64,000 nucleotides of DNA from an uncultured Trueperaceae bacterium (GCA_963799485.1 CAWCXJ010000007.1:1-64000), one strand, 5' to 3'; counted from the stretch's first letter, positions 1 through 64,000 are shown. The notes: generated from the letters alone by a model not told the origin. Numbers and translations: made by a program.

Positions 1-1505
1 AAAAAAACGATTTCGGCGTTTCCGTACGGTGCAGGCGTCAACGTTGAAGCGGTCAGCGCCGCTGCGACGACCAAAAGCCCGCGCCAGAGCCGCAGTTTAC
101 CGAGTGAGACAAGCGCCAGCGCGAACGCCCCGACGCCGTAATAAGCAAACCCGACCGGCGCGATTTCACCCCAGTCCAAGCTCGGCCAGGTCGCGCTCGT
201 ATTCGCCGCCCAGATAAGGGCCGCCGCCAGCGGCGCAGTGAGGTGGTTTAAGAACGTTGCCAGTGAGAGCGACGTCGTGCCTAAAAGCCCCGCAATAAAC
301 CCGAGCGGAACCAGCACGGTCGCCAGCGGCAAAGCCACGATGTTGACGACCGGGCCGAACACCGGCACAGTGCCGAAGGTGTGCGCCAAGAGCGGCAGCA
401 GGGGTGCCTGCGCCCCGAGACTCACGACCAGCGAACCGAGCAAAAGCGCTTTGGGATGCCACCACGGAAGCTTTGAAGCGTGCAGCAGCCGGAGCGTCGG
501 CCCGGCAAAGACCAGTATCCCGGTAACTGCCAGATACGAGAGCTGAAACGACAGGTCGTAGAGTTGGGAGGGGTTTAGTAAAAGTGCCAGCAGCGCCGCT
601 AGTGAGAGAGCGGGCCAGGGCTCGAGCCTTCCCGTACCCAGCCACAGCGACAAGAGCACGGCGACCGCCATCGTCGTCGCGCGCAAGACGCTCGGCGTTG
701 CCCCTACAAGGGCCGCAAACGCCACCACAAACGCAATCATCAGCGGATAACGCAGCACGCCGAGCGGTTTAAGCAAAAGCCCCAACGCCGCAATCAGCAC
801 GCCGATATGAAGCCCGGAAAGCGCCAGCACATGCGCCAGCCCCGCTGCCGCAAACACGTCCCGCAAATCGCGCAAATTGTCACGAATTCCGAGCGTCATC
901 GCCTCCATCAGGGCGGCCTGGTCAGGTGATAAACCCGCAGCGACGCCGCGCCGCAAACGTTCTTTGAAGGTTACAGCAGCAGGTTCAAACGAAAGTACCT
1001 CGTCCACGTAGACCTGCGCCCCGACCCCGCGCCGCGCCAAAAACCCGGCATAATCGAAGCCGCCCGGATTGCGTTTAGCTGCCGCCGCTACCACGTCGCC
1101 GCGTAGCGTAACGCGGCCCGCGCCGACGATATTTTTGGGCGAAAGCACGACCCTGGCCCCGGCGGGGGACTCGAGCTTCAAATACGTCCCGTCACTCGTT
1201 CCGGAAAGCGTCTGCGTCGTGCCGATAAGGGGCTCGAGCGGTTGTGGACGCGCCTCCCACGCTTCAAACCGTACAAACCCGAGCGGGACACACAAGAGCG
1301 TGAGCAAAAGAAGCCGTAAACCCAGCGTCCAGCCGAGAACCAGAAGCGCTCCGGCGCACGCGGCGCTCGTCCAGAGCGGCAGACCGGCACCTGCAAGGGC
1401 AATCCCCAAAACCAGACAAAACGCCGCCGGAACCGACCAGGCGAGTGAGAGCGCCGGGGAGCTTTCAGCGGTAGTCTCAGCTGACGAACCTAAAACGACG
1501 CTCAT
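1..1505 (-). CDS. comEC: ComEC/Rec2 DNA internalization competence protein (3' end runs off the window)
   Basis: Manual translation from ATG 1505 gives RNPGGFDY and the Competence-domain motif GLAHVLALSGLHIGVL plus many TM segments. It lies directly downstream of comEA. Confidence 0.9.
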   Translation of the reverse strand, partial: MSVVLGSSAETTAESSPALSLAWSVPAAFCLVLGIALAGAGLPLWTSAACAGALLVLGWTLGLRLLLLTLLCVPLGFVRFEAWEARPQPLEPLIGTTQTLSGTSDGTYLKLESPAGARVVLSPKNIVGAGRVTLRGDVVAAAAKRNPGGFDYAGFLARRGVGAQVYVDEVLSFEPAAVTFKERLRRGVAAGLSPDQAALMEAMTLGIRDNLRDLRDVFAAAGLAHVLALSGLHIGVLIAALGLLLKPLGVLRYPLMIAFVVAFAALVGATPSVLRATTMAVAVLLSLWLGTGRLEPWPALSLAALLALLLNPSQLYDLSFQLSYLAVTGILVFAGPTLRLLHASKLPWWHPKALLLGSLVVSLGAQAPLLPLLAHTFGTVPVFGPVVNIVALPLATVLVPLGFIAGLLGTTSLSLATFLNHLTAPLAAALIWAANTSATWPSLDWGEIAPVGFAYYGVGAFALALVSLGKLRLWRGLLVVAAALTASTLTPAPYGNAEIVF

Positions 1506-1512
1506 CGTTCGG

Positions 1513-2016
1513 TCATGGTTTGACGTAAGGGCGAATTTTCTCGAGCGTGGCGGGGCCGATGCCGGAGACGTTGAGCAAGTCTTCGATACTTTCAAAGGGG
1601 CGCGCTTCGACGATGCGCGCAGCCGTTACCGGGCCGACACCGGGAACGAGCAGTTCCAACTCGCGCTCGGTTGCCGTGTTGAGGCTGAGCCGGTCTTCGC
1701 CGGTGGCAGTGCGCGCTTCCGGAACGAGGACGGTTTCGCCGGTCGTAAGCGGGTCGGCGAGGTTCAAAAGCGTTTCTTCGGCGGTATCGGTCAAGCCGCC
1801 TGCTTTGGTTACGGCGTCGGTAACAAGGGAACCCCACGGCAGCGCGTAAACACCCGGAAAAGCGACCGCGCCTGCCACCGACACGGTGATGTCGGGTTGC
1901 ACTACGTTTACCGCTGTCTTTTGCACCGTAAAGCGTGGCCACAGATTCCAACCCAGCAGCCCGGCACAAACCGCGAGCAAAAGAAACGTCACCGCTGTTT
2001 CGGCTCTGGCGTTCAT
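1513..2016 (-). CDS. comEA: ComEA DNA-binding protein (TM, SLBB, helix-hairpin-helix)
   Basis: VSVAGAVAFPGVY SLBB motif, LNTATERELE..PGVGPVTAARIV and SGIGPATLEKI HhH motifs. Confidence 0.92.
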   Translation of the reverse strand: MNARAETAVTFLLLAVCAGLLGWNLWPRFTVQKTAVNVVQPDITVSVAGAVAFPGVYALPWGSLVTDAVTKAGGLTDTAEETLLNLADPLTTGETVLVPEARTATGEDRLSLNTATERELELLVPGVGPVTAARIVEARPFESIEDLLNVSGIGPATLEKIRPYVKP

Positions 2017-2087
2017 GGCCCAAGTCTAAAGTGTGGCAGCAAAAACCGACGCGAAAAATCTCGCGCCGGTCCCGAGAAGTCGCTAAG

Positions 2088-4696
2088 CTAGAGCAGGTTG
2101 CGGATAACTTGCGACCTGGTGATAAGCCCAGCGCCCTGTTCGGCGCTGAGCGCGCCCTTACCGATAAGCCGGTCTACCTGCCGCTCGAAACGTTCTAAAG
2201 CCGCTTCTGCTTGACGTTCCCGGTTGCGCCCCAGGTGGCGCTGCGCTGTTTCTAGTTGAGACAGTAACCTCTGCGCGTCCCCACGTTTGAGGACGCCCGC
2301 CCCCTCGAGCCCGTTCACTTCGGCAACCAGCTCCGATAGCAGTGCTTGCGGGTCGGGCGCGCTCAGTTCCAAACCCACTACCACCGGGTCATGATCCGAC
2401 GCGCGGTAAGGGTCGGGGGCAAAGATCGCGTCCTGCGCGTCGCTCTTAAAGCTGGTGTCGTAATCGAGCAAATCGGGTTCGTCGGCGCTAATGTGCCAGG
2501 CGGTCGTCCCGGTAATCTGCGCGGTCAAAGTCGGGCTCGAGAGCGCGTAGTCCAGATAGCCGAACTGCCCGTCAAAGGCGTAAGTGTAGGCGAACTCGCC
2601 ACCGAAACGCTCGTTTAAGTCGGTGTAACCGCCCGCCTCGAGCGTGCGAATCGGGTCTTCTTCGTCATACGAGTTGAGGTCGCCGATAATGAGCACGTCC
2701 GGGTCGCCGCTGCCGGTCGGGTCAGCAGCCAAAAAGTCGACGAGCGCCGCCGCTGCTTGGGTACGCGTGCCGTTGCAGTTGCCTTGCCCGTCGCCCGCGT
2801 CGGGGTCGTCCACGTCGTCACAGCTCGAGCCCTTCGACTTGAAGTGGTTGACCGCCACGCTCACGCGTCCACCGTTTACGTCGTCAAACGTTTGAACGAG
2901 TGCCGGACGGTTTTTGGTATCGATAAAACGCGAGTCAACCAAGCTGTCGAGGACGGCAAAGTCGCCTACGGGCGTCACCGCTGCCGGTTTGTACAAGAGC
3001 GCTACCTTGATGGCGTCGGTGCCGATAGTGCCGGTTGAAATGAAGCTATAGGTACCTGCGCCGACCTTGGCGTTCAGCGCAGCCACAAGGTTTTGTACCG
3101 CCACGTCACCGTTGTTTTCAATTTCGGTAAGGCCGAACACGTCGGCGTCGATGGCAGCGAGCGCCGCAACGATTTTGGCCTGCTGCCGCGCAAACTCTTC
3201 AGGGTTGTCCGCGCCCCGTGCACTGCTGTCTTCGCTGGTCAGGGTCGTAAAGTAGTTGAGCACGTTAAAGCCGGCGATCTTGAGGCTGCCGCCGACCGCT
3301 TCAGGTGCAGCAGTGCGCGGGTTCACCGACCTGTACTTAGCGCCTTGCGTCGGTTGCACCCGGTAGAGCCCAAAACGGTAGTCGAGCACACCGACGGTAT
3401 CCTGTACGGTGTCGCCGCCCCGGAAGCGGTTTGTAAGGCTAAAGGGTTCACCGTTCGGGTGCCGCGTGACGTCGGGATTTTGGGCGCTCAAGCCGTCGTC
3501 TAAGGTAATGCGGCTGCGCGTGTTCAGGTCGGCGACAGCCTGCGCTTCAGCGCCGGGTTCGGCGTAGCTGGTCGGGGTATAAGGGCGGGGCAAACTATCC
3601 GGGGGGCTTGCCAGGACGATTTCGCCGAAGCGGTCGTAGTTGAAGTATTCGGAGATGACCAGACTTTGCGGGAAACGGACGAGCATTCCCTCAAAGGCCT
3701 CGAGCACTCCCAACTCTGCTACCGGTAGCGTGATAAAGGTTTCAGGCACCGTCACCGGGCCGTCGTCAAGCACTTGGACGCTGCCGGCGCTAATCTGCGT
3801 TTGTTCGCCGAACTCGCTGACGCCGCCCGTCACCCGGACGCGCTGCCCAACCGAAACGCTGTCGTTATTGCCGTTAAAGACAAAAATGCCTTCGGAGGTT
3901 GCGGCGTTGTCGTCCCAGTCGCTTTGTTCTTCCTCGACGTAAAATCCACGCAAGGCCGGAGACGGCCCCTCGAAATCGCCGACGACAACGCCTTCGACGC
4001 TCACCGTCTGACCGGCGCACGGCGTCGTGTCGGTTTCACCCTGCACCACCGAAATCAGCGTCACAGCGGGCGCAGCCTGACATGCACCGGCTGCGCCGCC
4101 GTCTCCGCCGTAGCTACCCAGACCGGCAAAGGTATCGGTAGCAAGACCGTCCCACTCCGCCGCCGGGTCAAAAGCGTCGAGCCATCAGCGTCCCCTTGCA
4201 TGACGCTTTCTTTACGCCGCAGCGTGTTGTTCTGCGTGCTCGTCAGACCCGTCCCCCACTCGCTGCCGGGGTCGAAGCCAATCTGCCCGATAACGTCGAG
4301 AACGGTTGTTCCCTTGCGAAGAACAACGGCGTCGTTGCCGTTAAAAAAACTTGCGCCGTCTCGTCTGGTCGGAACCTGGGCCAAAATTGAGCGTCGGCGC
4401 GGCTGCTAGCGAAGACAAAACGTCTTCGACGCAACGTGCCGTCTTAAATTTATGTTTGTACCCGCTGCTGCATTCCCGTTAGCGAAAAAGTTTGACGGCG
4501 TAGCCGCCTGCGCTCAGATACTAGCTTCGCCGGTACCGTTATAGACTTCCAAAGCCTTGTTGTTGCTGCTTCCCTCAACGTACTCGGAAAAAAACAGTTC
4601 GGTAGGGGCCGCCGCTGCACCCAAACTCGGCGCAGCATCTTGTGAACAAGCACTCAGGAGCAAAAGCCCGCCTGCGGCTAATATCGTTCGTTTCAT
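2088..4696 (-). CDS. ExeM/NucH-family extracellular endonuclease lipoprotein (lamin-tail, OB-fold, EEP, C-terminal FIMAH-like helical domain); frameshifted in the 5' part
   Basis: Fragments 4514-4696 (lipobox [21 protein letters not shown]), 4061-4384 ([13 protein letters not shown]) and 2088-4064 (FNVLNYF, NHFKSKG, GDLNSY, ASDHDP) are collinear. Confidence 0.85.
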
Positions 4697-4755
4697 CGTT
4701 TCTCCCTCCGGTTCTCACTTTATTTACCCTACCACCTCACTTTCAGCCTGTGGTC

Positions 4756-4786
4756 AAAAAAACCGCGCCGGGTGTACACCCGGCGC
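4756..4786 (-). terminator. Rho-independent terminator of sodA
   Basis: GCGCCGGGTG/CACCCGGCGC inverted repeat followed by T7 on the minus strand. Confidence 0.7.
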
Positions 4787-4813
4787 AGCGGTAAAAAGCA
4801 AAAGCTTGGCGGA

Positions 4814-8459: not shown

Positions 8460-8479
8460 AGCGTTATCATAGCCTAGCT

Positions 8480-9969: not shown

Positions 9970-10120
9970 TCTCGTTCAAGTAAGTAAAGGCTATTTTACG
10001 TAGCGCCGCGGACAGGAAAAGAAAGTTGCGATAAAGTCGCGGTTTGGCTCGAGTCCCCCGGCAAAACCCGGACACGCCGGAGCTAACAGCTTCATTGCTC
10101 GTTACGGGGTAAATTGATGT

Positions 10121-10859: not shown

Positions 10860-11999
10860 GTGCAGGAAAGAGAAAAGGAGCTTTTAGAACAGGCGTCTCG
10901 TTACCGGCTGCTCGTTGAAAACCTCAAGGACTACGCCGTTTTTACGATGAACCCGGCCGGACAGATCGACTCGTGGAACCTGGGGGCGGAAGAAACGCTC
11001 GGCTATAGCAGCGCCGAAATTATCGGACAAGCGGCGGCGCTGATCTTTACGCCGGAGGACAGGGCGAAAAATGCCCCGCAACAAGAACTCGACACGGCGG
11101 CCCGTACCGGACGCGCGGAAGACAACCGCTGGCACGTGCGTAAAGACGGTTCGTACATCTGGGTCAACGGGATTATGGTCGCGCTTTTCGACGAAGAGCA
11201 GCCGGAGCAGCTGCGCGGCTTCGCCAAGATTATCCGCGACGAGACCAAACGGCTGGCGCAAGAAGAAGCGCTTAGAGCGTCGCACGAGACGCTGGAAAAC
11301 CGGGTTAGAGAACGAACCGAAGCGCTTAGGCGCTCCGAAGACCGGTTTCACAAGGCGTTCAGCTCGAGCCCGGCCCCCACCGTAATCGTGCGTTTAGGCG
11401 ACAAGCAGTACCTCAACGTCAACGAAAGTTTTTTGCTGCTGACCGGGTACGAACGTGATGAGGTCATCGGTCACACCTTAAAAGAGGTCGACTTATATGT
11501 CGACCAGCCCGGACGAGAGCGGGTACTCGAGCAGCTTCGGAGCGGTCAGCCCGTCCCCTTGCGTGAGATGGAAATCCGTAAAAAGAGTGGCGAAACGCTT
11601 TGTGTGATGGTCGCCAGCGAAATCATCGACGTCGACGACGACGCCTGCCAGCTCGATATCTTTATCGACATCACGCAGCGTAAACGCAGCGAGGTGCAGC
11701 TGATGCGCGCCATCGAAGAGGTGATGAGCGACACCACCTGGTTTAGCCGTTCGGTCGTCGAAAAACTCGCGCAGCTGCGTTCGGGTACGGTCGATCAGAC
11801 CGGCGTAGACGAGCTGACTGCCCGTGAACGCCAGGTTTTAAGCTACATCGCCAGGGGCTCGAACAACGAAACCATCAGCAGCGAACTCGGGCTCGCCACG
11901 CAAACGGTACGAAACTACATCTCGAGCATCTATGAAAAACTCGGTCTCCACACGCGCGCCGAGGTCGTCGTCTGGGCGAGAGAACGGGGTCTCGGCTAG
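10860..11999 (+). CDS. PAS-PAS-LuxR transcriptional regulator
   Basis: Two PAS/PAC regions (SWNLGAE..RKDGS; NVNESF..TGY) and a C-terminal LTARERQVL..TVRNYISSIYEKLG HTH. Confidence 0.9.
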   Translation: MQEREKELLEQASRYRLLVENLKDYAVFTMNPAGQIDSWNLGAEETLGYSSAEIIGQAAALIFTPEDRAKNAPQQELDTAARTGRAEDNRWHVRKDGSYIWVNGIMVALFDEEQPEQLRGFAKIIRDETKRLAQEEALRASHETLENRVRERTEALRRSEDRFHKAFSSSPAPTVIVRLGDKQYLNVNESFLLLTGYERDEVIGHTLKEVDLYVDQPGRERVLEQLRSGQPVPLREMEIRKKSGETLCVMVASEIIDVDDDACQLDIFIDITQRKRSEVQLMRAIEEVMSDTTWFSRSVVEKLAQLRSGTVDQTGVDELTARERQVLSYIARGSNNETISSELGLATQTVRNYISSIYEKLGLHTRAEVVVWARERGLG

Positions 12000-12001
12000 C
12001 T

Positions 12002-12536: not shown

Positions 12537-12716
12537 GCCGTAACTTTAGAACCGTGCAGACGTGCTGAACGTGAAATTTTCAGCCTCGAGCGCGTGAAAA
12601 AATCACATCTACAAACGGGTTTAGTGCATGTGAGATTGCCAACACTCAAGTACTTGAGTGTGTTCTTTACCGCCGGTCTGAGCCCGGACGCCGCCCCAAA
12701 CCGTTAGAGTAGGCCG

Positions 12717-13225: not shown

Positions 13226-13351
13226 TACACTGAGCAGGCCGATTTCGGCTTTTATGCGCGACTAACCTTTTTCCAGACGACTACGCCTTGCCCACGGGTA
13301 TCTCCAACTGTCCCGGTGCAGGCACCGTTCTCTTTTGGAAAAGGATTTTTT
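13226..13351 (+). promoter_or_regulatory. Promoter and putative translational attenuator leader (uORF MRD* at 13254-13265)
   Basis: TACACT -10 box; ATGCGCGACTAA abuts CCTTTTTCCAGA, which can pair with TTTGGAAAAGG covering the RBS. Confidence 0.6.
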
Positions 13352-14917
13352 ATGTCGCTTGTGCTTCAGGCCCTCGGCCTCGGTTACCGTTATCCCGACC
13401 AACCCGACCCGCTCTTTGAAGGGCTCGAGCTGACCCTTTACTGCGGCGACCACGTAGCGCTGTTAGGTGTCAACGGTTCCGGTAAAACCACGCTCCTAGA
13501 ACTCTTGTCCGGCCTCCTGCCGCTCCGGACCGGACAGCTGACGACGCACGCGGAGCCGTTCTATTTACGGCAAGAAGACCGCTTGACGGGGGATAAAACC
13601 GTGCTGGACGCGGTGCTCGAGACCTACCCCGACCTCGGGCCGCTACGCGCGGAACTTTTACGGCACGAGGCCGCAAACGTTCCCGAACCGCTTCGTTACG
13701 CCGAACTGCTCGCCGAGTTTGCCGAAGCCGGCGGGTACACCCTGGCGGCAAGCCTGCAAACCGAACTCGGCGCGCTCGGTTACGCGCCTGAGCTGCTGGA
13801 GCGCCCCGTAACCGCCCTTTCCGGCGGCGAACGGCGGCTGCTACAGCTCGCTGCGGCGTTCGCCCGGCCTCAAACGCTCTACCTGCTCGACGAACCGACC
13901 AATCACTTAGACGCGCGCGCCACGCGCTTCTTGACGCGCAAAATCCAGGAAACGGCGGCGGCCTGCCTGATCGTCTCGCACGACCGGGGGTTTTTAGACG
14001 AGACCGTAAACGGGGTGTTTGAACTTGGGCGCGGCGGCCTCAGGCACTACCGCGGCAACTACTCGAGCTTCTGGTCACAAAAAGAAACCGAGCACGCCGA
14101 GCGGGTTCGCCAAAGCGGCAAACTAAAGCGCGACATTGCGGGGCTTAAAGCGCAGGAGCGCACCTACAAAGTCTGGGGAGCGCGCAAGGAGAAAGAGAAA
14201 TCCGGGGCGGCGGACAAGGGCTTTGTCGGGGCGCGGGCGGCGCGGCTGATGCGGCGCGGGCTTCAGGCCAAAGAGCGGCTCCGGGAGCGTATCGGCGACC
14301 TCGAGGACACCAAACCGTGGATTGATAAACGTTACGCCGTTGCTTTCGAAACACCTGAACTGCCGGCGGGTGTGTGTTTGAGCGCGCGCGACGTCCCGGT
14401 TTTGAGCCGGAAGGTTTCGCTCAACCTGGAGTACGGTGAAAGGTGGGCCGTCGCAGGTGCCAACGGTGCGGGCAAAACGACCCTGCTCCGCACCCTGCTC
14501 GGCTCTGGCGCAAGCACGGGTGTTATCTGGGACACGCGCGCGGTTATCGGCTACTTGCCGCAACGCTGCGACGATGTACATAACGACATAAACAGCGGCG
14601 AAACCATAGCAACTCGCTTTGCCGAGGCTGATGGGCCTCGAGCCCGCACCCTGCTGGGGGCGTTCGGTGTTCCGGGCGAGGCGTTTACGCAGCCCCTGAT
14701 CTCTTTGAGCGAGGGTCAAAAACGCAAGGTTCGGCTTATTGAACTTATCCTAGCGCGCCCTAACGTCCTCGTTTTAGACGAACCGACGACGCATCTAGGT
14801 TATGTCAGCGTCGAAATGCTCGAGGCTGCCCTGCTGGGCTTTCCCGGAACCCTGCTGCTGGTCAGTCACGACGTGTACCTGCTCGAGCGGACCACACGGC
14901 GGCGGCTCGAGCTTTAG
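13352..14917 (+). CDS. ABC-F family ATPase (possible ribosomal protection protein)
   Basis: Two ABC cassettes (GVNGSGKT..LSGGE..LLDEPTNHLD; GANGAGKT..LSEGQ..LDEPTTHL), a linker and no TM segments. Confidence 0.9.
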   Translation: MSLVLQALGLGYRYPDQPDPLFEGLELTLYCGDHVALLGVNGSGKTTLLELLSGLLPLRTGQLTTHAEPFYLRQEDRLTGDKTVLDAVLETYPDLGPLRAELLRHEAANVPEPLRYAELLAEFAEAGGYTLAASLQTELGALGYAPELLERPVTALSGGERRLLQLAAAFARPQTLYLLDEPTNHLDARATRFLTRKIQETAAACLIVSHDRGFLDETVNGVFELGRGGLRHYRGNYSSFWSQKETEHAERVRQSGKLKRDIAGLKAQERTYKVWGARKEKEKSGAADKGFVGARAARLMRRGLQAKERLRERIGDLEDTKPWIDKRYAVAFETPELPAGVCLSARDVPVLSRKVSLNLEYGERWAVAGANGAGKTTLLRTLLGSGASTGVIWDTRAVIGYLPQRCDDVHNDINSGETIATRFAEADGPRARTLLGAFGVPGEAFTQPLISLSEGQKRKVRLIELILARPNVLVLDEPTTHLGYVSVEMLEAALLGFPGTLLLVSHDVYLLERTTRRRLEL

Positions 14918-19136: not shown

Positions 19137-20152
19137 TAGCACTTCCAGCATTCACAGCCACAAAGTAAGCTAGAGCATGGCGAGCTATTCACTGGATTTA
19201 CGGGAACGGATTGTCAAGGCCCATATCGAGGAAGGGCAGAGTAAAAGTGCGGTAGCCAGACGCTTTGGCGTCAGTCGCTGGAGCGTTGAGCGCTACGTCA
19301 AACGCTCTCAAACCGGGAGCTTAGCGGCAACACCCCATCCAGGTAGAAGGCGGCAGCTTGACGCCAAAGGTTGTGAGGTGTTGCGGCGGCAGGTTGAGGC
19401 GCAGCATGACTGGAGTCTCGAGCAGCACGCCGCCGCACTTGCTAAAGAGACGGGTATAGAGCTTAAGAAATCTTCGGTAGGTAACTACCTCAGGCGGTTG
19501 GGTATTACACATAAAAAAGAGCTTTAGTGCTACCGAAAGAGACGAAGGACAACGACAGCACTACTTAGACGAAGTAAGTCGCAAAGAAACAAAAACGCTT
19601 GTCTTCATCGACGAAACGAGCGCCTACGTCGGGCAAAGCCGAGAATACGGCTGGGCTGCAAGTTGTGAGCGCGTTGATGATAGCCGACCTAAAGGCAAGA
19701 AAGAGCGCGTCAGCCTGATTGCTGCAATAACCCTCGGGGGAATAATGGCTGAGCAAGCTTTAGTTGTTCCAGACACGGTAAACAAAAACGCCTTCCTAGC
19801 TTTTCTTGAATCTACCTTGCTCCCGACCCTTGCTAGTGGGAGCGTCTTAGTTTTGGATAACTGGCACGCAAAGCACCCCGAAGGGACAGTCCATCATGGT
19901 GAAGAAGTCAGGAGTCTTGTCGAGGCGTATGACTGTGAACTCTTGTACCTACCGACATACTCACCCGACTTTAATCCCATTGAACATCTCTTCGCCAAGC
20001 TCAAAGCGTTGATCAAAAGCCTTCGGCCTGAAACGATGGACAACCTTATCCAAGCTTTTTGTGAGGCGGTCAAGGCTGTTACCCCTAAGCAGGTTCTCAG
20101 TACCTTCAAGCATTGTGGCTATGGATTAGAGCAGTAAATCATGGAAGTGCTA
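19137..20152 (+). mobile_element. IS630-family insertion sequence
   Basis: TIRs TAGCACTTCCA / TGGAAGTGCTA with TA at both ends, enclosing a transposase. Confidence 0.92.
19177..20137 (+). CDS. IS630 transposase in two frames joined at the A6G run (19513-19519)
   Basis: HTH ORF MASYSLDLRERIV..THKK; the second frame from 19520 has VFIDETS, VLDN and YLPTYSPDFNPIEH (DDE). Confidence 0.88.
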
Positions 20153-20434: not shown

Positions 20435-23100
20435 ATGAGTACGCAGCCCAACCGAGCAGAACCCCGAATACTTCGCGACTTCGACGAACATGCTGTCGCT
20501 ATTGCCAGACGGCAGTATTTTCAGCCGGATGACGGTGATTTGGCAGGGCTGTTCGGACGGGTCGCCGCGTGGGTGGCGTCACCGGAGGCCGAGAGTGAGC
20601 GGGAGGAGTTGAGGGAAACCTTCTTCAATCTCATGGCCTCGAAGCGTTTCTGCCCCGGTGGGCGGGTGCTGGCGGGCGCGGCAACCAGCCACGGCAACGT
20701 GCTGAACTGCTTTGTGCAGGACGGCTCACCCGAAACCGTCGGCACCGACGCCTGGGTCATGCATTTAGCCACCAAACTCGCGCTCGTTACCAAGGTCGGC
20801 GGCGGCAACGGGCTTTGCCTCGATCCTTTAGAACCCAAACGCCCGTACAGCGCGCGTACCGGCGGGCTCTACCTCACGATTTCGGCCTCGCACCCCGACT
20901 ACGCCAAGGTCAAAAGCGGCACCTATATGGACTTGGTTCACGGCAAATACGTGAGCAAGGGCTACCGCTACGCGTCGTTTCTCGAACAAGACGAAGTGCC
21001 CGACGCCATGCCGACGGTCAATGTGGGCGATTCGGTCGAAGGCATCTGGCAGAGCGCCGACGAAGCAGTTGGCGCAGTGCTCAGCGGCGACGACCTGCTC
21101 CTCGACCTGTCCGGGCTCCGTGCGGAAGGAACGCCGGTCAAGGGTTCGGGGGGCTCGAGCAGCGGCCCTTCATCGTTTGCCGTCGAAGTGTTCGACAACT
21201 TCGCGCTCTGGGCGTCTTTAGGCGGAGCAGCTCATGCAGGCCCGGTAGCAACGCTACGTTACATCTTCGCGCCAACGCTAAGGGTCATTCGGCAGGGCGG
21301 CACGCGGCGCGGCGCAGGCATGGCCACCATGTCGGTCACGCACCCCGATATTCAGGACTTTATCACCTGTAAGGATTTGGCACGCGAAGAACAAGAGGGG
21401 GACATCAGCACCTTCAACATCTCGGTACTGGTAACAGACGCGTTTATGAAACGGGCTAAAGAGACGCACGCCACAGGCGTACAGCAAAATGTGCTGCAAG
21501 ACGTTGCCGAACACGCGTGGCAGACCGGCGAACCGGGACTGATCTTTATCGACCGGATCAACGCCTTTAACCCGATGCGGGGTTCACTTGGGGACATTAA
21601 AGCCACTAATCCGTGCGGAGAGATACCCTTATTTCCCGGCGAACCGTGCGACTTAGGTGCTATCAACCTCGCGCAGTACGTCGAGACCTCCGATCAGGGC
21701 TTGAACGGTTTCGACTGGGCGAGTTTCAAGGACGACACCAAGACCTGTATCAGATTCCTGGATAACGTCTTAGAGGTCAACCGCTTTGCCTTGGAGGACA
21801 ACCGCAGCATGAGCATGAAGCTCCGGCGTTTGGGCTTAGGTATCATGGGCCTCGCCGACACGCTTATCAAGATGGGCTTTCGTTACGACGCCCCCGAAGG
21901 CCGCGCCGCCGTAAAAGTCATGATTAACGAACTCCGCGAGAGTGCCACCCAAGCGAGCCAAGAACTCGCCCATGAGCGCGGCGCATTTCCAATGTTTGAC
22001 GAAAGTAGTCTCGCGACCCCCCGCCGCAACGTCGCGCTGCTTGACCGTCGCCCCGACCGGCACGACGAGTATGTTGATGGGCGTCTCTTCAGGCGTCGAA
22101 CCGATTTTCGCCCCCTTTATCTACCGTAAAATCGGTGACTCGTATGCCGCGCTGGTGTCTCCCCTCTTTCCGGGAGATGCTGGAACAGCACCCCGCGCAC
22201 CCCGACTGCACGAAAAACGGGGCGTGGGACTGGGACAAGGTAGTCGAGGCCGTGCAAAACAACCACGGCAGTGTGCAGGGGATTGCGTTTATCCCCGACG
22301 CGGTGCAGCGCGTACTGGTCTGCGCCCACGACATCGCGCCCGAGGCGCACGTGCTGATGCAGGGCACCGTGCAGAGCACGTTTGATGCGGGCGGTGAACA
22401 GGTCGCCAACAGCATCTCCAAAACCATCAATATGCCCAACCATGCAACCGTCAAAGACGTGTACGACGCTTACGCTCAAGCGTTCGATACGGGTTGCAAG
22501 GGCATTACGGTCTACCGGGACGGCTCGAGACAGTTCCAAGTTTTATCGACCAAAAAGAGCGACGATAAAAAACAGCAAAAAGCCGTTCAACCTCAGCGCC
22601 CCCAGAAGGCCACTGTACAAGAAACCGAAGCTCAGCGCCTCCCCGGTGAACCGTTGTTCGACCGCCCCGGACGTTTGGTCGGCTTTACCGACAGCGTAAA
22701 ACTGACGACCTCGAGCGGTGAGCGGCGCAGCTTTTACCTGACCGTAAACAAACAAGACGACCTGCCGACCGAAGTCTTCATCCAGTCGGGCAAGGGCGGC
22801 GAAGAGATCATGGCCGACTCCGAGGCGCTCGGGCGACTTGTGTCAATTGCGCTCCAGTACGGCGTCCCGGCAGAAGCCATCGTCAAAACACTGCGCGGCA
22901 TCAACGGCGGCATGTACGGCTCGTATCAGGGCCGGATGGTCGCGTCGAAGGCCGATTTGATCGCAGTCGCGCTCGAGACCGCCGGTGTCCAGAGCCCGCC
23001 ACTCGCCAGCGCGAACTGCCCGGAAAATTGTGGCGGTCAGCTTGTCCGCGAAGAGGGCTGCGTCAAGTGCTATACCTGCGGCTACAGCAAATGCGGCTAG
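20435..23100 (+). CDS. nrdJ: Class II (AdoCbl-dependent) ribonucleotide reductase with TSCPD/Zn-ribbon C-terminus; two frameshifts (~22040, ~22168)
   Basis: NCFV, RRGAGMA, GEPG, TNPCGEIPL, RRLGLGIMG, TVAPTGT, SISKTIN, CKGITVYRDGSR and C-terminal CYTCGYSKC across three frames. Confidence 0.92.
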
Positions 23101-25764: not shown

Positions 25765-25969
25765 CTTCGCTCAGTTGCCGGTGGCAGACCTTCACTCGAG
25801 ACCGCTCACACACTCAACAAGGGGTTTCAAACCCCTTTGAAGCAACTACCGCAAGCTGGTGGCATCCGCTACCAAGTCCCTATAAGTTCAGCCTGGTCGT
25901 TCAGGATGTCGGTGACGTAGTTGCTTGACCGACACCCTGAACCTTTTACACCCCCAAAGGAAGGTTGCT

Positions 25970-36766: not shown

Positions 36767-37789
36767 GTGTTTGCTTTTGTCGTTCGGCGCATTCTGTTTT
36801 TGCCGGTCATCTTTATCGGTGTCACACTCTTTATCGTTTTACTTATGCAACTTCTCAGCCCCTACGAGCGCGCTGTTACCTTCGTTACCTCAGAGGTGCA
36901 GCTCCGCAATATCGACGCCATCATCGAGCAGTACGGCCTTAACGATCCCTGGTACGTGCAGTACTGGAACTGGCTGTCTCAGGCTTTGCAGGGTAACTTG
37001 GGTTTTTCTCGAGTCACCAATCAGCCCGTTTTGACAACTATCGCGCAGCGGCTACCCAACACTATCGAGCTGGCTGTCTTGACACTGATTCCGACCATCG
37101 GCTTTGGAATTTGGCTCGGCACCGCCGCCGCCCTAAACCGTGACCGTTTTATCGATCAGGTGTCGCGTGTCACGTCCATCTTTTTCTGGTCGTTGCCGAC
37201 GTTCGTATTAGCCATCTGGTTACTTATCATCTTTTACGGCGGCTTTAACCTGTTTGGTTTGGGTCAGTTGTCTTCAAATTTTGCGCGGGCGGTGATCAGG
37301 CCCGAGTTCGAGCGCTACACCGGTTTTATGACGCTGGACGCACTCCTCAACGGTCGTTTTGACATTTTCTGGAACGCGCTGATGCACCTCGTGTTGCCGG
37401 TATCTACGCTCGTTTTGGTGATCAGCGCGCAGATTGTGCGGGTGATGCGCTCGTCGCTTTTGGATACGCTATCACAAGACTATGTGCGGACGGCGCGGGC
37501 CAAGGGGCTGTCGAACTCGGTGGTCAACCACAAGCACGCGCGGCGAAACGCGCTCATTCCGGTTCTTACCCTTTCCGGTTTTACTTTGGTCGGACTCCTT
37601 AACGGTTCGGTGATTGTCGAGACGATTTTCGCGCTGCCCGGCGTCGGTAAATGGCTTGCAGACGCCGCTGTGCAGCTCGACTACGCAGCCGTACTGGGGG
37701 GCGCGGTTTTTGTAGGCCTTCTGGTTGTCATCGGCAACCTTATCGTCGACATTCTCTACGCGGTCGTAGACCCAAGGATACGGTACTGA
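36767..37789 (+). CDS. Peptide ABC permease (DppB/OppB-like)
   Basis: GNLGFS, DYVRTARAKGL and ETIFALPGVG motifs. Confidence 0.93.
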   Translation: MFAFVVRRILFLPVIFIGVTLFIVLLMQLLSPYERAVTFVTSEVQLRNIDAIIEQYGLNDPWYVQYWNWLSQALQGNLGFSRVTNQPVLTTIAQRLPNTIELAVLTLIPTIGFGIWLGTAAALNRDRFIDQVSRVTSIFFWSLPTFVLAIWLLIIFYGGFNLFGLGQLSSNFARAVIRPEFERYTGFMTLDALLNGRFDIFWNALMHLVLPVSTLVLVISAQIVRVMRSSLLDTLSQDYVRTARAKGLSNSVVNHKHARRNALIPVLTLSGFTLVGLLNGSVIVETIFALPGVGKWLADAAVQLDYAAVLGGAVFVGLLVVIGNLIVDILYAVVDPRIRY

Positions 37790-39717: not shown

Positions 39718-39750
39718 AAGCCGCACCCGGCTCGAGTCCGGGTGCGGCTT
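39718..39750 (-). terminator. Terminator hairpin after acnA
   Basis: AAGCCGCACCCGG/CCGGGTGCGGCTT. Confidence 0.75.
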
Positions 39751-43992: not shown

Positions 43993-44653
43993 ATGGACGA
44001 ATTCAGAGCCAAAAGGATTTACGCAACGCTCAACGCGATGGTTTTTATACTTAGTCAGCTAGACCGTCGCTATACTGAACTCGTAGCAATGCTTCACGAT
44101 TATCGGAAAAGTAAGGAACAGGATGGAAAAATTGAAGAGCCACGTCAAGTTACTATGGATATCGGTTATCCGCGTGGCAACTATATGGTTAGTCTCGCGT
44201 GGGACATCGTTGACTGGTGTGACCGCTTAAGAAAAATTGCAGGAGTAAAGGCAGGAATCAAGCGTAGGGATGAATGGTTTCAACAGCTTGAGGCTACTCT
44301 AGAAACCACAAAAGACATCAGGAACTTTTTGCAACATTACGATAGCGAAGTAAACACATTTGTTCTAGGGTCTTATCCACTGATGGGCAGTATCAGCGCA
44401 CACTTCCCCATAGAAGATGGATGGTGTGCTGTGCATACATTATCATGAGCACTCCTATTGCGTCGGTGTATCACAAAGAGTTTAAGATAGCGAGCTTCAC
44501 TAACCCATCCGTCGTAAATGGAGACGTTGACTTAGTAACTTTCTCTGTAGCAGAGAAAGCACTAAATTTGACCGATATAACGGTAAAACTTAGAGAAGCA
44601 AAACTCGGAGTTATATGGAAAAGGAATACGATTTCACATGGCCAGAGTTCTGA
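43993..44653 (+). CDS. Low-GC hypothetical protein with a HEPN-like RNxxxH motif; apparently frameshifted twice
   Basis: ORF 43993-44448 (IRNFLQH) continues in other frames, possibly to TGA 44651-44653; TAAAGT leaderless box. Confidence 0.5.
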
Positions 44654-57317: not shown

Positions 57318-57362
57318 TGAAAAAAATAAAAAGGTTTTAGAGATGAGACAGGACTCGAGGCT

Positions 57363-58511: not shown

Positions 58512-58591
58512 CTTTTTAGCCTAGCATCCGAACGGGCCGCGTTCCAAGAGTGGTGAGCATATAGCCGAACGCGGTATTGGGTCAAGCCGGA

Positions 58592-60052: not shown

Positions 60053-60111
60053 ACGTTTAGTTTAAGCCCGGCACAAAAGGCCAAAGGCGCAGACGCCGAC
60101 AAAAAACAGGT

Positions 60112-60702
60112 TTATCCATCCAGCGCACGCACCACGCTTAAAAAATCCGCAACGATGTTGCCGGTAAGTCCCCAAATCAGCCGCTCTCCTGTAGAACTCT
60201 GATGGGCGTAAAAATAGATCGTGCGGCGTTGTCCCTCCAAAAGGCGCGTTTCTTGCCGGGGCGTAAGCTCGAGGAGTTCAGCCAGCGGCACCGTAAAAAC
60301 CTCGGCGACCTCGGCAGCTTGGAGTATGAGCGGTTGAGGCCACCTTACGACACCGACGACCGGCGTAACGGTGTAGCGAGCGGGTGAGGGCAAGTCATGC
60401 AGCGTTCCCAAAAGCGAGGTTTCAGGAACGTCCAGGCCGATTTCCTCAGCGGTTTCGCGCCGCGCCGCTTGCACAACGTTTTCGCTCGCCTCGAGCCGCC
60501 CCCCCGGAAACGAAATCTGACCCGCATGGTTTGAAAGCGAAGTGCTGCGAACGGTGAAAAGCAGCTCGAGCCCCGCCGGTGTCCGCAACAGCGGCACCAG
60601 CACGGCGGCGCGGCGAAAGTCGGGGAAGTCCAGGGTTTTACGGGGGCGGTGTGGCAGTGCGTGTTTAAGTTTTGCCAGAAGGTCGTCGGGTTGAAGCGTC
60701 AC
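60112..60702 (-). CDS. NUDIX CoA pyrophosphatase (NudL-like)
   Basis: AAVLVP, HAGQISFPGG, ARRETAEEIGL and IWGLTG motifs. Confidence 0.93.
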   Translation of the reverse strand: MTLQPDDLLAKLKHALPHRPRKTLDFPDFRRAAVLVPLLRTPAGLELLFTVRSTSLSNHAGQISFPGGRLEASENVVQAARRETAEEIGLDVPETSLLGTLHDLPSPARYTVTPVVGVVRWPQPLILQAAEVAEVFTVPLAELLELTPRQETRLLEGQRRTIYFYAHQSSTGERLIWGLTGNIVADFLSVVRALDG

Positions 60703-61322
60703 GTAGCAGATTCGGTCGTTTCAGCCCGGGCGTCCGCCGCACGCCGTAAAGCGAGTTCGGGGTTGACCCCGGCGGCGCGGGCATAATCGGTTACGGCGAG
60801 TAAGAGCTTACCGAGCGCCGCTTCAGTCGGCAGCTCATCTAGTGCGGCTTTGATGTGTTCAGGATTGCCGGGCGACCACCCCAACTTACGACCCAATTCC
60901 GCCGCCCGCATCAGCGCCGGAAGACTACGCGGCACCCGTTCTGCCGGGGAAAACTCGACCCCGCCCCGCTCTTCAGTTTTGATTCGCTCCCAGTTGCGTT
61001 TGACCTCGGCTGAGTCGGCAACCTGGATGTCTCCGAAGATATGCGGATGGCGACGCTCGAGCTTCGCCACAATGCTCGCTTCGATAGCTTCGTAAGAAAA
61101 CGTCCCGGCCTCTTCTGCTATGGCCGCGTGAAAGGCGACTTGCAGCAAGACGTCGCCGAGTTCGTCCGCCATGAGTTTAGGGTCGCCCGTTGAAAGTGCG
61201 TCAACGGCTTCGGCGGCCTCCTCGAGCAAATAAGGCCGTAAACTTTCGTGCGTCTGTTCCTGATCCCACGGGCAGCCTTCAGGGGCACGCAGACGTCTCA
61301 TCGTCTTGAGGAGTTTGTCCAT
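60699..61322 (-). CDS. mazG: MazG nucleotide pyrophosphohydrolase
   Basis: GCPWD.EQT, EEAAE, ELGDVLLQ and RRHPHIFG motifs. Confidence 0.92.
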   Translation of the reverse strand: MDKLLKTMRRLRAPEGCPWDQEQTHESLRPYLLEEAAEAVDALSTGDPKLMADELGDVLLQVAFHAAIAEEAGTFSYEAIEASIVAKLERRHPHIFGDIQVADSAEVKRNWERIKTEERGGVEFSPAERVPRSLPALMRAAELGRKLGWSPGNPEHIKAALDELPTEAALGKLLLAVTDYARAAGVNPELALRRAADARAETTESAT

Positions 61323-61501
61323 AGGCTACTATAGCGGGCGTCGGCTTATTGCCAACGGAACCGTTATTTGCCTAAACGTCAGTGTCACTCTTACAGATAT
61401 ATGCCTTATGACTTCAGCGTAAGTCTACGCCCGTTTTGACCGCCGACGTCAGTTGACTTACCGCTGCTCGAGTGGTCTTTTCTCCCGGCTTTTAGCGCTA
61501 T

Positions 61502-62521
61502 TTACAGGTACTTCATATTTATCATCTTGCTCGTGATGAGTAGAGCCGTCCGGGTAGGTGTACTCCGGATGAGCCCGATGATCATCATGAGCGCAAGCTT
61601 GAAAGTGAGCTTCTTCGTCGTTTTCGCCTTGAAGGGGGAAAAGAGATGTTCGGTAAGCGCCGGTGCTGGTGAAGCGGCGTCGAGCCTACTCATAAGAAAA
61701 TACAGGGTAAGCACCCGCCAGTTACATTTTTGCCACTTGGAAACAGCGACTTCTACCCCCATAGCTGCCGCCGTCTGCTGTAAAAACGCACTCCGCGACT
61801 CGTAGCGCGCGAGGTTCTTACGAATATTTTTGAGGGTTAGCGCACCACGAGCTTGCGACACACCCGCCCCATGTTCGCGGTAAGCGCCCACGGCTTGATC
61901 GATCGTTGCGACAGTCCCAAACAGCGGGGCTGTATCCATCAAGTAGGCGTCTAACGCCCCTCTAATCGTACTGGACTCTGGAAGCGGCGCGACGGCATCG
62001 AGAAAAGATTTCCGCCAGGCGTTACCCGAGGTCGGAGGCGCGACGTAACTGCCTGGACCGTACTCGAGCACCTGCGACCGCAGGTTGCCCTCACCGGGTT
62101 TACGTCCGGGAATCTGTTTTCCGCTCCCTACTCCCCGCCCGTCTACGACCTGGAGAAATCCCTGCAACTTGACGATCTCGGCGTTTCGCATCTTTGCTGC
62201 ATAAAGAGATAAGGTGCCGGGCAAAAGATAATCGTCGGCATCGACACACACGACAATTTCACCGGTGCAGACTCGGATACCTGCGTTGAATGCTGAAGTT
62301 TGACCCCCATTTTCCTTAAAGATAGCGACCACAGGCTCTGCGTAACCCTCGATAACTTGTTTTGAAGCGTCTGCCGAGCCGTCGTCGACCACGACGACTT
62401 CTTTATGCGGGTAGTCTTGCTTGAAGATGCTGTCTAGACATTGACCAAGATACTGGGCATAGTTGTAGTTCGTAATCAAGACACTGATTTTCACCGGCTT
62501 TGTCTGGTGTTCTGCCAACAC
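61502..62521 (-). CDS. GT2 glycosyltransferase
   Basis: SVLITNYNY, VVDDGS, NGGQTSAFNAG and DADD motifs. Confidence 0.9.
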   Translation of the reverse strand: MLAEHQTKPVKISVLITNYNYAQYLGQCLDSIFKQDYPHKEVVVVDDGSADASKQVIEGYAEPVVAIFKENGGQTSAFNAGIRVCTGEIVVCVDADDYLLPGTLSLYAAKMRNAEIVKLQGFLQVVDGRGVGSGKQIPGRKPGEGNLRSQVLEYGPGSYVAPPTSGNAWRKSFLDAVAPLPESSTIRGALDAYLMDTAPLFGTVATIDQAVGAYREHGAGVSQARGALTLKNIRKNLARYESRSAFLQQTAAAMGVEVAVSKWQKCNWRVLTLYFLMSRLDAASPAPALTEHLFSPFKAKTTKKLTFKLALMMIIGLIRSTPTRTALLITSKMINMKYL

Positions 62522-62950
62522 GCCTAAAGTCTCCTTAGTAGTTAGAGTCTTAGTATCAGCCGGCGTTAGCGCTGCGGTTGCGTTTCAGCCCAACGCTTCA
62601 TAACCAATACCGGCAAAGCATGACGCTTAGTTTATCACTCTCATGATTTTTAGCTCAGCGTGTCGCAGCACTCCCTTTGGTGCTTTGTGTCGATGCCAAA
62701 AAACGAGTTTTTCCTTGTAAAACGCAGCAGCTACGCAAATGTACTCGCAAACTCATACAAACAGACAGCTAATTCGTCACACCTTAAGCAAACAGCTAGA
62801 ACCCAGCTCGAGCCCCACCCTCAGCAGCACCTTGACACACGAAACCGTCAGCGTCGAAATCGTGCCCTCACCCAAGCCGGTCAACCTCCCGACTAAAAAG
62901 CCGCGCACCGGATTCCCGGTAAGTCTCTGCCGCCTGACCGGGCACTCCGG

Positions 62951-63610
62951 CTAAAAGACCGCGCCGGCGTCACGAGCTTGCAACAATCTTTGCAACGCCG
63001 CCTCTTTCTCCGCCCGGTCACGTTCTGAAATAGGCGCAGCCAGATAACGGCGCAAGGTCGCCTCGTCAAGTTGCGGTTTGTAAAAGTCCCGAAACATCTC
63101 TACTGCCGAGAGCGTCTCGCCCTTGTAAGGGTAAAGCGTTACCGCATCACCGACCTGTACATATCCTTCTTGCAAAACGCGGCAGTACACCCCCGGACGC
63201 TCCGCCTGCCGAAACCGCCTGACGAACGCCGGGTCGCCCATACGCGCGGAGAGCGTGACGCAGGGAACGCGCGGGGACGTAACCGCGAGCCCCACCGTCC
63301 CTACCTCTAAACGGTCGCCGAGTCTTAAGGACGTACTCCCCAAACCACTTACCGTAAGGTTTTCGCCGAAAGTACCGGGTTGCAGCTCCTTGCCCAAAGC
63401 CTTAGACCACCACGCATAATCAGGCACGCCGTAAACGTACACTGCCTGGTCGATACCGCCGTGGTTTTCGGTGTCGCAGACGGTGTCACCCCTCAAACCC
63501 AAGACGCCGACCGCAACGGGATTCTGAGTCGCTTGCTTGTAAATACCCGTCTGCCCCGATTTGGCTTTTATTGCCTGAGCTTTACCGATATTGACGCTGA
63601 CCAGCTTCAT
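62951..63610 (-). CDS. MOSC / 3-alpha domain protein (YiiM-like)
   Basis: TGIYK, HGG.DQAV, FGENLT, PRVPC and GVYCRVL motifs. Confidence 0.9.
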   Translation of the reverse strand: MKLVSVNIGKAQAIKAKSGQTGIYKQATQNPVAVGVLGLRGDTVCDTENHGGIDQAVYVYGVPDYAWWSKALGKELQPGTFGENLTVSGLGSTSLRLGDRLEVGTVGLAVTSPRVPCVTLSARMGDPAFVRRFRQAERPGVYCRVLQEGYVQVGDAVTLYPYKGETLSAVEMFRDFYKPQLDEATLRRYLAAPISERDRAEKEAALQRLLQARDAGAVF

Positions 63611-63744
63611 AAGACTCCCTTGTAACCTCGAGCCCCCGTCAGCTACGCCGCGAGCCCAACCACACTCTAGCAGCGCTCAGGGCAGCACCATAAGCCCCTA
63701 ATAAGCCCCTAGCAGCTTGGCGATCTCACGGAGCCGGGTGTCCG

Positions 63745-64000
63745 TTGCTACCACCGGGGTCGCGCGCGGTTCCTCTCGGTGTCGACCTGATTGATTTACC
63801 CCCTTGCTCGCCCGAACTTCAACCCGCTGAAAAGTTATGGCGGCTCACCGACGAACCCCTTGCCAATACACTCTTTGACGACCTCGGCTCGCTGCAAGCA
63901 ACGCTTGATCAGCGTTGCAAGCTCTATCGACCCAACCCGATCTCATCTCACAAGAAACCCTCTTCCACTGGTGGCCGCTGACATGATAGAGGTTTATCCG
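63745..64000 (+). mobile_element. IS630-family transposase 3' remnant
   Basis: LPPCSPELQPAEKLW motif and a frameshifted FHWW tail; no N-terminal part is present. Confidence 0.75.

Follow-up and report, generated by a model that had tools for sequence, protein, structure and literature searches.

Results

CTCGAG in the window

The 64,000-nucleotide stretch analysed here (GCA_963799485.1 CAWCXJ010000007.1:1-64000; ‘the window’ throughout, meaning the whole stretch at its full length) comes from an uncultured Trueperaceae bacterium, a relative of Truepera in the order Deinococcales, and our subject is the palindromic hexamer CTCGAG that recurs along it. The assembly, designated G000, comprises 3,655,195 bp in 15 contigs, and the window is G000:C7:1-64000. 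An earlier account made from the sequence alone (the sequence-only reading) put the number of copies at about 115 against some 20 expected and likened the word to the highly iterated palindrome HIP1 of cyanobacteria; the exact count is 115 (1.8/kb), compared with 20.2 expected from base composition at a GC content of 0.587. An order-4 Markov model raises the expectation to 72.7. The next palindromic hexamer in the window, GCGCGC, has 67 copies, 1.6 times its expectation. Based on crude gene calls, 75 of the sites read CTC-GAG in frame, two read xCT-CGA-Gxx, 16 read xxC-TCG-AGx and 22 are unassigned. The sites and features that illustrate this spread are as follows.

10048..10053: intergenic CTCGAG; sites at 25795 and 61467 likewise lie outside called genes
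11921..11926, plus strand: CTCGAG read as xxC-TCG-AGx in the open reading frame (ORF) 10860-11999; others at 22524 and 23425
14637..14642, plus strand: CTCGAG read as xCT-CGA-Gxx, using the rare Arg codon CGA, in ORF 13316-14917
19137..20152, plus strand: IS630-like element of GC 0.51, with split ORFs, one part matching HTH_Tnp_IS630 and the other DDE_3 (Pfam)
37008-37013: second CTCGAG read as xCT-CGA-Gxx, in ORF 36767-37789
39720..39748: CTCGAG (39731-39736) in the loop of a hairpin whose two arms, 39720-39730 and 39738-39748, are 11 bp each
43993..44653, plus strand: low-GC stretch (GC 0.43) with no CTCGAG

Most of the individual sites that had been singled out from the sequence lie where they were placed: both xCT-CGA-Gxx sites, all three xxC-TCG-AGx sites, and the intergenic sites at 10048 and 25795. 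The intergenic site given as 61447 is really at 61467, and that at 12585 falls in a weakly scoring ORF of 134 amino acids and is perhaps intergenic. The hairpin that had been called a terminator can be read in the sequence, with CTCGAG in the loop, a T-rich run after it and convergent ORFs on either side; a consensus terminator scan did not call it, and it may be a terminator. The low-GC stretch at 43993-44653 does lack the word, as had been observed, although this carries no weight because so short a segment should hold only about one copy at genome density. An IS982 element had also been reported as free of sites, but none was found among the 13 window ORFs scanned against Pfam; the sole transposase-like element found is the IS630-like one, which contains a single CTCGAG, at 19417. 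This element has about eight near-full-length matches (~0.7-1.0 kb, 73-81% identity) and many short fragments in the closest relative, G005.

CTCGAG is in excess as a DNA word in every context

Across G000 there are 7252 CTCGAG (2.0/kb), at 1.5-2.07/kb in each of the 15 contigs; counted on a single strand, no other hexamer among the 4096 is as frequent (the runner-up, GCGGCG, has 6975). Observed/expected (O/E) ratios under Markov orders 0 to 4 were 6.23, 5.9, 4.68, 3.26 and 1.48; order 3 conditions on the TCGA tetramer, and CTCGAG itself inflates the order-4 expectation, through the pentamers from which this is computed. The word ranked first among the 4096 by count, by order-2 ratio and by order-4 z score (47), and 21st by order-4 ratio. 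Other palindromic hexamers are not equally enriched: the median O/E of the 64 is 0.43, and the second after CTCGAG is AAGCTT at 2.08. The remaining fifteen NTCGAN words had O/E of 0.56-2.18, and GAGCTC, which has the same composition and uses the same two codons, stood at 0.47 of its expectation.

Many palindromic hexamers are strongly avoided in G000 (observed/expected counts: GGATCC 53/1163, GCATGC 83/1163, TTTAAA 22/271, CCTAGG 98/1163, GGCGCC 210/2410 and GGGCCC 244/2410), which suggests a long history of restriction pressure. Against this background of avoidance the excess of CTCGAG stands out all the more.

Genes were called with our own crude method (ORFs plus a codon score), giving 3027 genes over 82% of the genome; errors in these calls blur the frame classes but do not create them. 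By frame, 4864 sites were in frame 0 (CTC-GAG), 298 in frame 1, 878 in frame 2 and 1222 unassigned. In 30 within-gene shuffles of synonymous codons, which preserve proteins, dipeptides and per-gene codon counts, the corresponding means for frames 0, 1 and 2 were 1461 +/- 36, 39 +/- 5 and 220 +/- 14, so that the observed numbers exceed them 3.3-, 7.6- and 4.0-fold. Moreover, 342 copies were found in 1399 spacers of 20-300 bp between called genes (170.7 kb, GC 0.533), compared with 43.6 +/- 6.5 after shuffling (7.8-fold), and CTCGAG is the top hexamer there too. The 9140 Leu-Glu pairs of G000 are spelled CTCGAG in 53% of cases versus 15% expected, with near-cognate spellings depleted (CTCGAA at 0.15, CTTGAG at 0.28 and CTGGAG at 0.34 of expectation). 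Leu-Glu itself has an O/E of 1.23, compared with 1.04 for Glu-Leu, and CGA, the codon required in frame 1, accounts for 3382 of about 67,000 Arg codons. The frame-independent, HIP1-like pattern described from the window is therefore borne out genome-wide, in all three frames and in spacers; it outlasts correction for TCGA and for dipeptide and codon usage, and Leu-Glu codons are not its whole cause.

Flanking positions add little: -1 is G and +1 is C in 50% of sites (0.15 bit), and the palindrome extends by one more pair in 32.5% of cases versus 25.8% by chance. The unit is thus the hexamer, and the extended consensus that the sequence-only reading had raised did not emerge. CTCGAG is over-represented in G000 as a DNA word in every context; it is not a codon pair, a peptide or a repeat element.

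Even spread and positional conservation

Gaps between successive sites in G000 are distributed nearly exponentially, with a slight regularity (coefficient of variation 0.935, largest gap 4.7 kb). When the 150 most frequent hexamer classes are compared in 5-kb windows, CTCGAG has the lowest index of dispersion (0.93, against a median of 1.22); every such window holds at least 2 copies, and whatever the GC class O/E stays at 5.5-6.8. The idea that stretches poor in CTCGAG might mark foreign DNA was considered and ruled out, low-GC windows keeping an O/E of ~5.5-6. The densest cluster genome-wide has 5 sites in 300 bp. No cluster was found around dnaA or dnaN in G000, where the dnaA-flanking spacers (C7:179120-180451) hold no sites.

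Conservation was measured against 400 kb sampled from G005, with 111 of 160 alignments kept (237.6 kb, 80.8% identity). The word was intact in both genomes at 281 positions, out of 419 sites in G000 and 429 in G005. This conservation of 66.3% ranks first among 484 hexamer classes with at least 150 occurrences (mean 37.5%, standard deviation 6.8%); one-letter neighbours of CTCGAG were conserved at 22-45%. In non-coding or unassigned columns 24 of 40 copies were kept, compared with 34% for all hexamers. Positional conservation, raised as a check in the sequence-only reading, is therefore found in its strongest form, CTCGAG being the best conserved of the hexamer classes compared.

Where G005 has CTCGAG and G000 does not (148 cases), the commonest G000 form is CGCGAG or CTCGCG (24/148), a change that hits the would-be methylated adenine or its partner. 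In the reverse comparison neither word is among the 12 commonest G005 variants. In this two-genome comparison the asymmetry may reflect either losses in G000 or gains in G005.

Distribution across Deinococcales

CTCGAG was counted in 201 Deinococcales genomes. Genome sizes were rounded and the GC content of relatives was estimated from samples of 1-20 kb, eight of which were below 6 kb and give only rough O/E values. The groups compared were the following.

Trueperaceae (f1), 54 genomes: CTCGAG O/E 0.87-12.6
f2, probably Deinococcus, 53 genomes: CTCGAG 0.01-0.27/kb, GAGCTC equally low
g11, probably Thermus, 28 genomes: CTCGAG ~0.6-1.6/kb, mostly near 0.9, the same range as GAGCTC
g35, Meiothermus, 17 genomes: CTCGAG 1.4-3.1/kb
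g41 and g42, 6 genomes: CTCGAG 2.5-3.4/kb
f3, 23 genomes: CTCGAG 0.7-2.9/kb
f5, uncultured, of metagenome-assembled type, 19 genomes: CTCGAG 4.3-6.8/kb, GAGCTC 0-25 copies in 16/19
f5 members: G016, G020, G027, G036, G041, G055, G060, G064 and others (loci L091-L096 and L167)

The excess is common to much of the order, being seen in most Trueperaceae, in the Meiothermus-like genera and in f5, and on density-based and sample estimates the order as a whole runs from a 0.03-fold deficit to a 33-fold excess. Sites are spaced at one per 500 bp in G000 and one per 150-190 bp in f5. The f5 genomes, in 20-kb samples, have GC of 0.44-0.64 (about 0.44-0.52 in 4/5 genomes) and O/E of 12-33. Pooling 118 kb from five of them gave an O/E of 24.5, with excesses of 5.4-, 11.1- and 13.9-fold in the three frames and 31 copies in short gaps versus 0.8 expected. 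In this pool 71% of Leu-Glu pairs are spelled CTCGAG, and Leu-Glu itself is at 2.36 times expectation versus 1.06 for Glu-Leu. In 400 kb sampled from the Meiothermus genome G040, O/E was 6.8, the frames were at 3.0-, 11.7- and 3.3-fold, 53% of Leu-Glu pairs were CTCGAG, and spacers held 26 copies versus 4.6. In the literature searched, no report of CTCGAG over-representation in bacteria was found; one such report concerns the honey bee.

At the other extreme, f2 genomes have as few as 26 CTCGAG in 2.9 Mb, with GAGCTC equally rare, as under restriction avoidance. GAGCTC (the SacI site) is also almost absent in f5 and in the Trueperaceae genera g14 and g27; 16 of the 19 f5 genomes have 0-25 copies in 4-5 Mb, and G021 and G154 have 62 and 73.

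Methylation of CTCGAG in cultured relatives

Three cultured members of the order are listed with N6-methyladenine (m6A) at CTCGAG (Blow et al. 2016, PMC4752239, S3): Meiothermus ruber DSM 1279 (enzyme M.Mru1279II, Mrub_2385; 99.5% of sites), M. chliarophilus DSM 9957 (M.Mch9957IV, MeichDRAFT_0814; 94.1%) and Marinithermus hydrothermalis DSM 14884 (M.Mhy14884I, Marky_0034; 94.6%). The same data, obtained by SMRT (single-molecule real-time) sequencing, class all three as type II orphans with no cognate restriction enzyme listed (PMC4752239). Hot-spring epigenomes are described as showing CTCGAG and TCGA methylation shared within one host-phage group, and Deinococcota as keeping a fixed motif set (10.64898/2026.06.24.734251). 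Over-representation of CTCGAG goes unmentioned in the accessible text and tables of the former (PMC4752239) and, likewise, in the accessible portion of the latter preprint (10.64898/2026.06.24.734251).

Candidate methyltransferases

G000 encodes an MmeI-like enzyme, a type I HsdM, three C5 methyltransferases whose genes lie on contigs of low GC, one enzyme of the N4/N6 family and one orphan gamma-class enzyme, the last of which we call ‘type 1’.

G000 C6:25999 to about 27650, minus strand: type 1, orphan gamma-class adenine methyltransferase with DPSFGGG and NPPF motifs

Type 1 matches the Pfam domains N6_Mtase, Eco57I and M_Eco57I_C, and aligns over 537 residues at 62% identity with an intact 557-amino-acid protein of G002, another relative. 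Its best matches among solved structures, M.TaqI and M.BseCI, are weak (E about 2e-3). No neighbour within 1.5 kb of type 1 is conserved among 12 genomes. At one codon G000 reads GCT-TGA-GTC and G005 reads GCT-CGA-GTC, so the stop in G000 arose by a CTCGAG-to-CTTGAG change inside the gene; the nearest contig in the public runs stops one base before this codon, these contigs being short and of low depth. Read as xCT-CGA-Gxx, CTCGAG leaves the type 1 gene one transition away from a stop.

Type 1 was present in 28/53 sampled Trueperaceae and 13/17 Meiothermus genomes, in 1/53 of f2 (28% identity), and in none of 23 f3 or 19 f5 genomes. The four Meiothermus genomes without it have an unrelated enzyme of 568 amino acids (‘type 3’), which aligns over its full length with M.BseCI (ATCGAT; E 3e-23) and occurs also in g42 (2/2), in the Trueperaceae genera g22 (3/3) and g20 (1/1), and in G002 and G176. 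The two are mutually exclusive in Meiothermus g35 (13 versus 4 of 17, none with both and none with neither), and lie side by side in the Trueperaceae genome G176 (C4:631405-634854). In G040, 68 kb separate the type 3 gene from a type I hsdM, a spacing that fits, indirectly, the locus-tag distance between M.Mru1279II (CTCGAG) and M.Mru1279I (type I) in M. ruber. A third lineage, full-length homologues of M.TaqI (E 2e-126), was found in one f3 genome, in 28/28 g11 genomes and in the single g44 genome. By sequence relationship, the order would thus hold at least three unrelated lineages of candidate CTCGAG enzymes: type 1, the M.TaqI homologue and the M.BseCI-like type 3.

In Trueperaceae whose GC is below 0.62, CTCGAG O/E is 3.0-12.6 in the 19 genomes that carry type 1 or type 3, compared with 1.34 and 0.87 in the two that carry neither. 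In those of GC 0.62 and above, O/E is 1.9-6.7 with or without an enzyme; GAGCTC rises in parallel there, which indicates a codon effect in these genomes.

No candidate tried for f5 held up. A 499-amino-acid Eco57I-type gene of G016 is present in just 2/19 genomes, and a TaqI_C-type gene of G036 is full-length solely in G036. C5 methyltransferases occur in 18/19 f5 genomes, a presence from which specificity does not follow. In G036 (L294:1706-4391, contig C34) a 307-amino-acid ORF without a Pfam match begins 37 bp downstream of an Eco57I/TaqI_C-type methyltransferase; the two, seen in that genome only, may be a restriction-modification pair.

Searches for associated functions in G000 were negative for Vsr (PF03852; control positive in E. 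coli, B. subtilis and Caulobacter) and for MutH (PF02976; control positive in E. coli), and Vsr was found in 0/19 f5 genomes. The XhoI endonuclease family (PF04555) also gave no match in G000, but its control was likewise silent in 14/14 control genomes.

A second abundant word

G000 has a second hyper-abundant word, the asymmetric CGCCGTAAA(A). The 9-mer is present in 1113 copies (O/E 39) and the 10-mer in 540 (O/E 91), and the core CCGTAAA in 3274. Both orientations are found, as is every frame in which no stop would result, and the density in spacers is 1.2/kb; the word is well conserved relative to G005. It exceeds its reversed word ~8-fold in G000 and G005 and ~6-fold in G002. The word is strong only in the genus of G000, being weak or absent in most other Deinococcales genera, and looks more like an uptake-sequence signal than CTCGAG does.

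Discussion

A proposed methylation-linked palindrome and its alternatives

We lean, with moderate confidence, towards reading CTCGAG as an iterated palindrome like HIP1, linked to adenine methylation by orphan enzymes. The word would owe its importance to being methylated by orphan gamma-class N6-adenine methyltransferases (CTCG-m6A-G), and across Deinococcales several such enzymes, not orthologous to each other, may replace one another. A pressure for many, evenly spread methylatable sites would keep its density high, even where this means using rare codons and adding Leu-Glu pairs; this pressure could be selection for a genome-wide methyl mark (post-replicative or of self, in the manner of Dam and GATC) or a bias resembling selection. 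The fuller proposition, which we advance only tentatively and regard as the less probable outcome, is that Deinococcales independently evolved a HIP-like system, in which selection drove a 6-bp adenine-methylation site to be as dense as a 4-bp one, so that it serves as a methyl mark across the genome, post-replicative or self, and turnover of non-orthologous methyltransferases kept that mark. If that is true, the proteins of f5 have already been reshaped, with Leu-Glu at 2.4 times expectation.

The methylation link proposed in the sequence-only reading has thus fared unevenly. In its favour are the methylation of CTCGAG listed for relatives (PMC4752239), the orphan gamma-class gene that a search of G000 did recover, and an excess in 19/19 lower-GC Trueperaceae with an enzyme versus 0/2 without. 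A number of results weigh against it. The CTCGAG specificity of type 1 is one that we infer, and the gene in G000 is broken by one in-frame TGA (locus L068, about 2941-2943). Despite the broken gene, the sites in G000 have not decayed, numbering 419 versus 429 for G005 in aligned DNA; with such a nonsense mutation CTCGAG may now be unmethylated and not yet decayed. The enzyme-free contrast consists of two genomes only, among kin that are not independent, and at GC of 0.62 and above the CTCGAG/GAGCTC ratio is 1.4-4.2 in 14 genomes with an enzyme and 1.2-3.1 in 19 without. Fifty metagenome loci encoding type 1 (of 80; 30 shorter than 5 kb were dropped) have a median CTCGAG O/E of 1.28, only four exceeding 4, compared with a median of 0.38 in unrelated control loci (50/59 used); this median rules out the type 1 family as a sufficient cause of the excess. 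None of the candidate enzymes tried is conserved in f5 (2/19 for one, 1/19 for the other), and the three enzyme queries gave no match in g41, a genus of 4 genomes with an O/E of 10 in one 8.5-kb sample. Finally, with no MutH found and no cluster at dnaA, a straight copy of the Dam system is unsupported.

Three other explanations were weighed. That the excess is a compositional artefact of favoured CTC and GAG codons, frequent Leu-Glu or a general surplus of TCGA is hardly credible: 67% of G000 sites (4864/7252) are indeed in-frame CTC-GAG, both codons are common, and in Trueperaceae of GC 0.62 and above the joint rise of CTCGAG and GAGCTC shows a codon contribution, but synonymous shuffling yields 3.3-7.6 times fewer copies in every frame, spacers show a 7.8-fold excess, O/E is still 3.3 at order 3, GAGCTC is at only 0.47 of expectation for the same composition and codons, and the other NTCGAN words reach just 0.56-2.18. 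For G000 the artefact is refuted by the Markov, synonymous-shuffle, spacer and palindrome comparisons. Alternatively, CTCGAG could be a binding or recognition site independent of methylation, whether for a nucleoid protein or as a self-signal in uptake or recombination, with methyltransferases merely targeting a common word. Its density of 2/kb in genes and spacers, even spread and positional conservation are as such a genome-wide signal would have them; the excess in f5 and g41, where no candidate methyltransferase was found, and the persistence of sites in G000 despite the broken candidate gene also speak for it. However, a 6-bp palindrome gives little specificity, and known uptake sequences are longer than 6 bp and asymmetric; Thermus and Deinococcus are the members of the order known to be naturally transformable, yet the genera presumed to be these show no specific excess or a deficit. 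No reader protein was identified, and methylation of exactly CTCGAG in cultured relatives would then be coincidence. We consider this explanation rather unlikely, and the uptake or recombination signal that the sequence-only reading offered beside methylation drew no support here.

We also think it improbable, though not negligibly so, that the word is a neutral by-product of a mutation or repair bias of the lineage, by which near-cognates are converted to CTCGAG or methylated sites are shielded from mutation. A repair model of this type was proposed for HIP1 (Elhai 2015, PMC4390886), and the excess in G000 is similar wherever the word is free to vary (7.6-fold in frame 1, 7.8-fold in spacers), with near-cognate Leu-Glu spellings depleted to 0.15-0.34 (CTCGAA 0.15, CTTGAG 0.28, CTGGAG 0.34) and most one-letter neighbours mildly depleted genome-wide, to 0.6-0.8 of order-2 expectation. 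On the other hand, the deamination neighbour CTTGAG/CTCAAG, at 0.79 of order-2 expectation, lies within the 0.60-1.14 of the other neighbours, and Vsr was found neither in G000 nor in the 19 f5 genomes; over-representation driven by Vsr is ruled out on these two grounds. Furthermore, CTCGAG has the highest conservation of all hexamers and is spread more evenly than Poisson despite varying gene content. For HIP1, conservation has been interpreted as a sign of selection (Xu et al. 2018, PMC5861425), although a persistent bias could mimic it.

Significance

For three decades the HIPs of cyanobacteria have been a puzzle, and CTCGAG would add a second, independent case from another phylum. A single order here supplies natural contrasts, from a 0.03-fold deficit to a 33-fold excess, together with turnover among at least three candidate enzyme lineages, two of which replace each other among 17 Meiothermus genomes, and an apparent natural knock-out in the stop codon of the G000 candidate gene. 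Since cultured, methylome-characterised Meiothermus and Marinithermus share the trait, HIP function could be tested outside cyanobacteria, and all of this together offers both comparative and experimental means of telling whether words of this kind are methyl marks under selection or arise as by-products of repair. CTCGAG dominates hexamer statistics and codon-pair usage, and in f5 even alters dipeptide content; for these genomes it should therefore be allowed for in codon models, in the detection of horizontal transfer and in binning by composition.

Comparison with known systems

The closest likeness is to HIP1 (GCGATCGC) and the alternate HIPs of cyanobacteria, as described in the portions of PMC4390886 and PMC5861425 drawn on here: a short GC-rich palindrome far above expectation, which occurs in every reading frame and in intergenic DNA, keeps its positions from one genome to another, and is targeted by orphan methyltransferases whose types vary by lineage (for CTCGAG, such enzymes are published for relatives). 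The differences are that CTCGAG is a hexamer, HIP1 an octamer from a different phylum; that HIP1 is enriched 15-300-fold (PMC5861425), compared with 6-fold for CTCGAG in G000 and 12-33-fold in f5 samples; and that relatives are reported to methylate CTCGAG only as m6A, with gamma-class enzymes. A periodic distribution at 10-90 kb is described for HIP1 (PMC5861425); the analysis of CTCGAG spacing here covered dispersion and gaps.

M.Mru1279II, M.Mch9957IV and M.Mhy14884I come from the same order, act on the same word and are listed without a cognate restriction enzyme, and the orphan gamma-class gene of G000 belongs to a family shared with Meiothermus; those enzymes, however, were assigned by SMRT sequencing, whereas the G000 candidate is predicted from sequence and its gene carries a stop. 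The CTCGAG methyltransferase of Nocardia is likewise an orphan acting on the same word and conserved within its lineage, but there the modification is listed as m5C or of undetermined type, each enzyme has a Vsr-type partner, and the motif clusters between dnaA and the polymerase III gene (PMC4752239), where G000 has no cluster.

Dam and GATC offer the parallel of an orphan adenine methyltransferase with sites over the whole chromosome, and the density of CTCGAG in f5 is near the chance density of a 4-base word (one per 256 bp). GATC reaches such a density without enrichment, whereas a 6-bp site needs to be enriched many-fold. G000 differs in having no detected MutH and no CTCGAG cluster at dnaA/dnaN.

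The DNA uptake sequence (DUS) of Neisseria and the uptake signal sequence (USS) of Haemophilus resemble CTCGAG in being lineage-specific and present at ~1-2 copies/kb in genes and spacers. They are asymmetric words of 9-12 bp recognised by the uptake machinery; CTCGAG, in contrast, is palindromic, 6 bp long and only weakly constrained in its flanks (0.15 bit at -1 and +1). Lastly, CTCGAG differs from the sites of restriction-modification systems of the XhoI/PaeR7I type in that, rather than being avoided, it is enriched 6-fold in its host.

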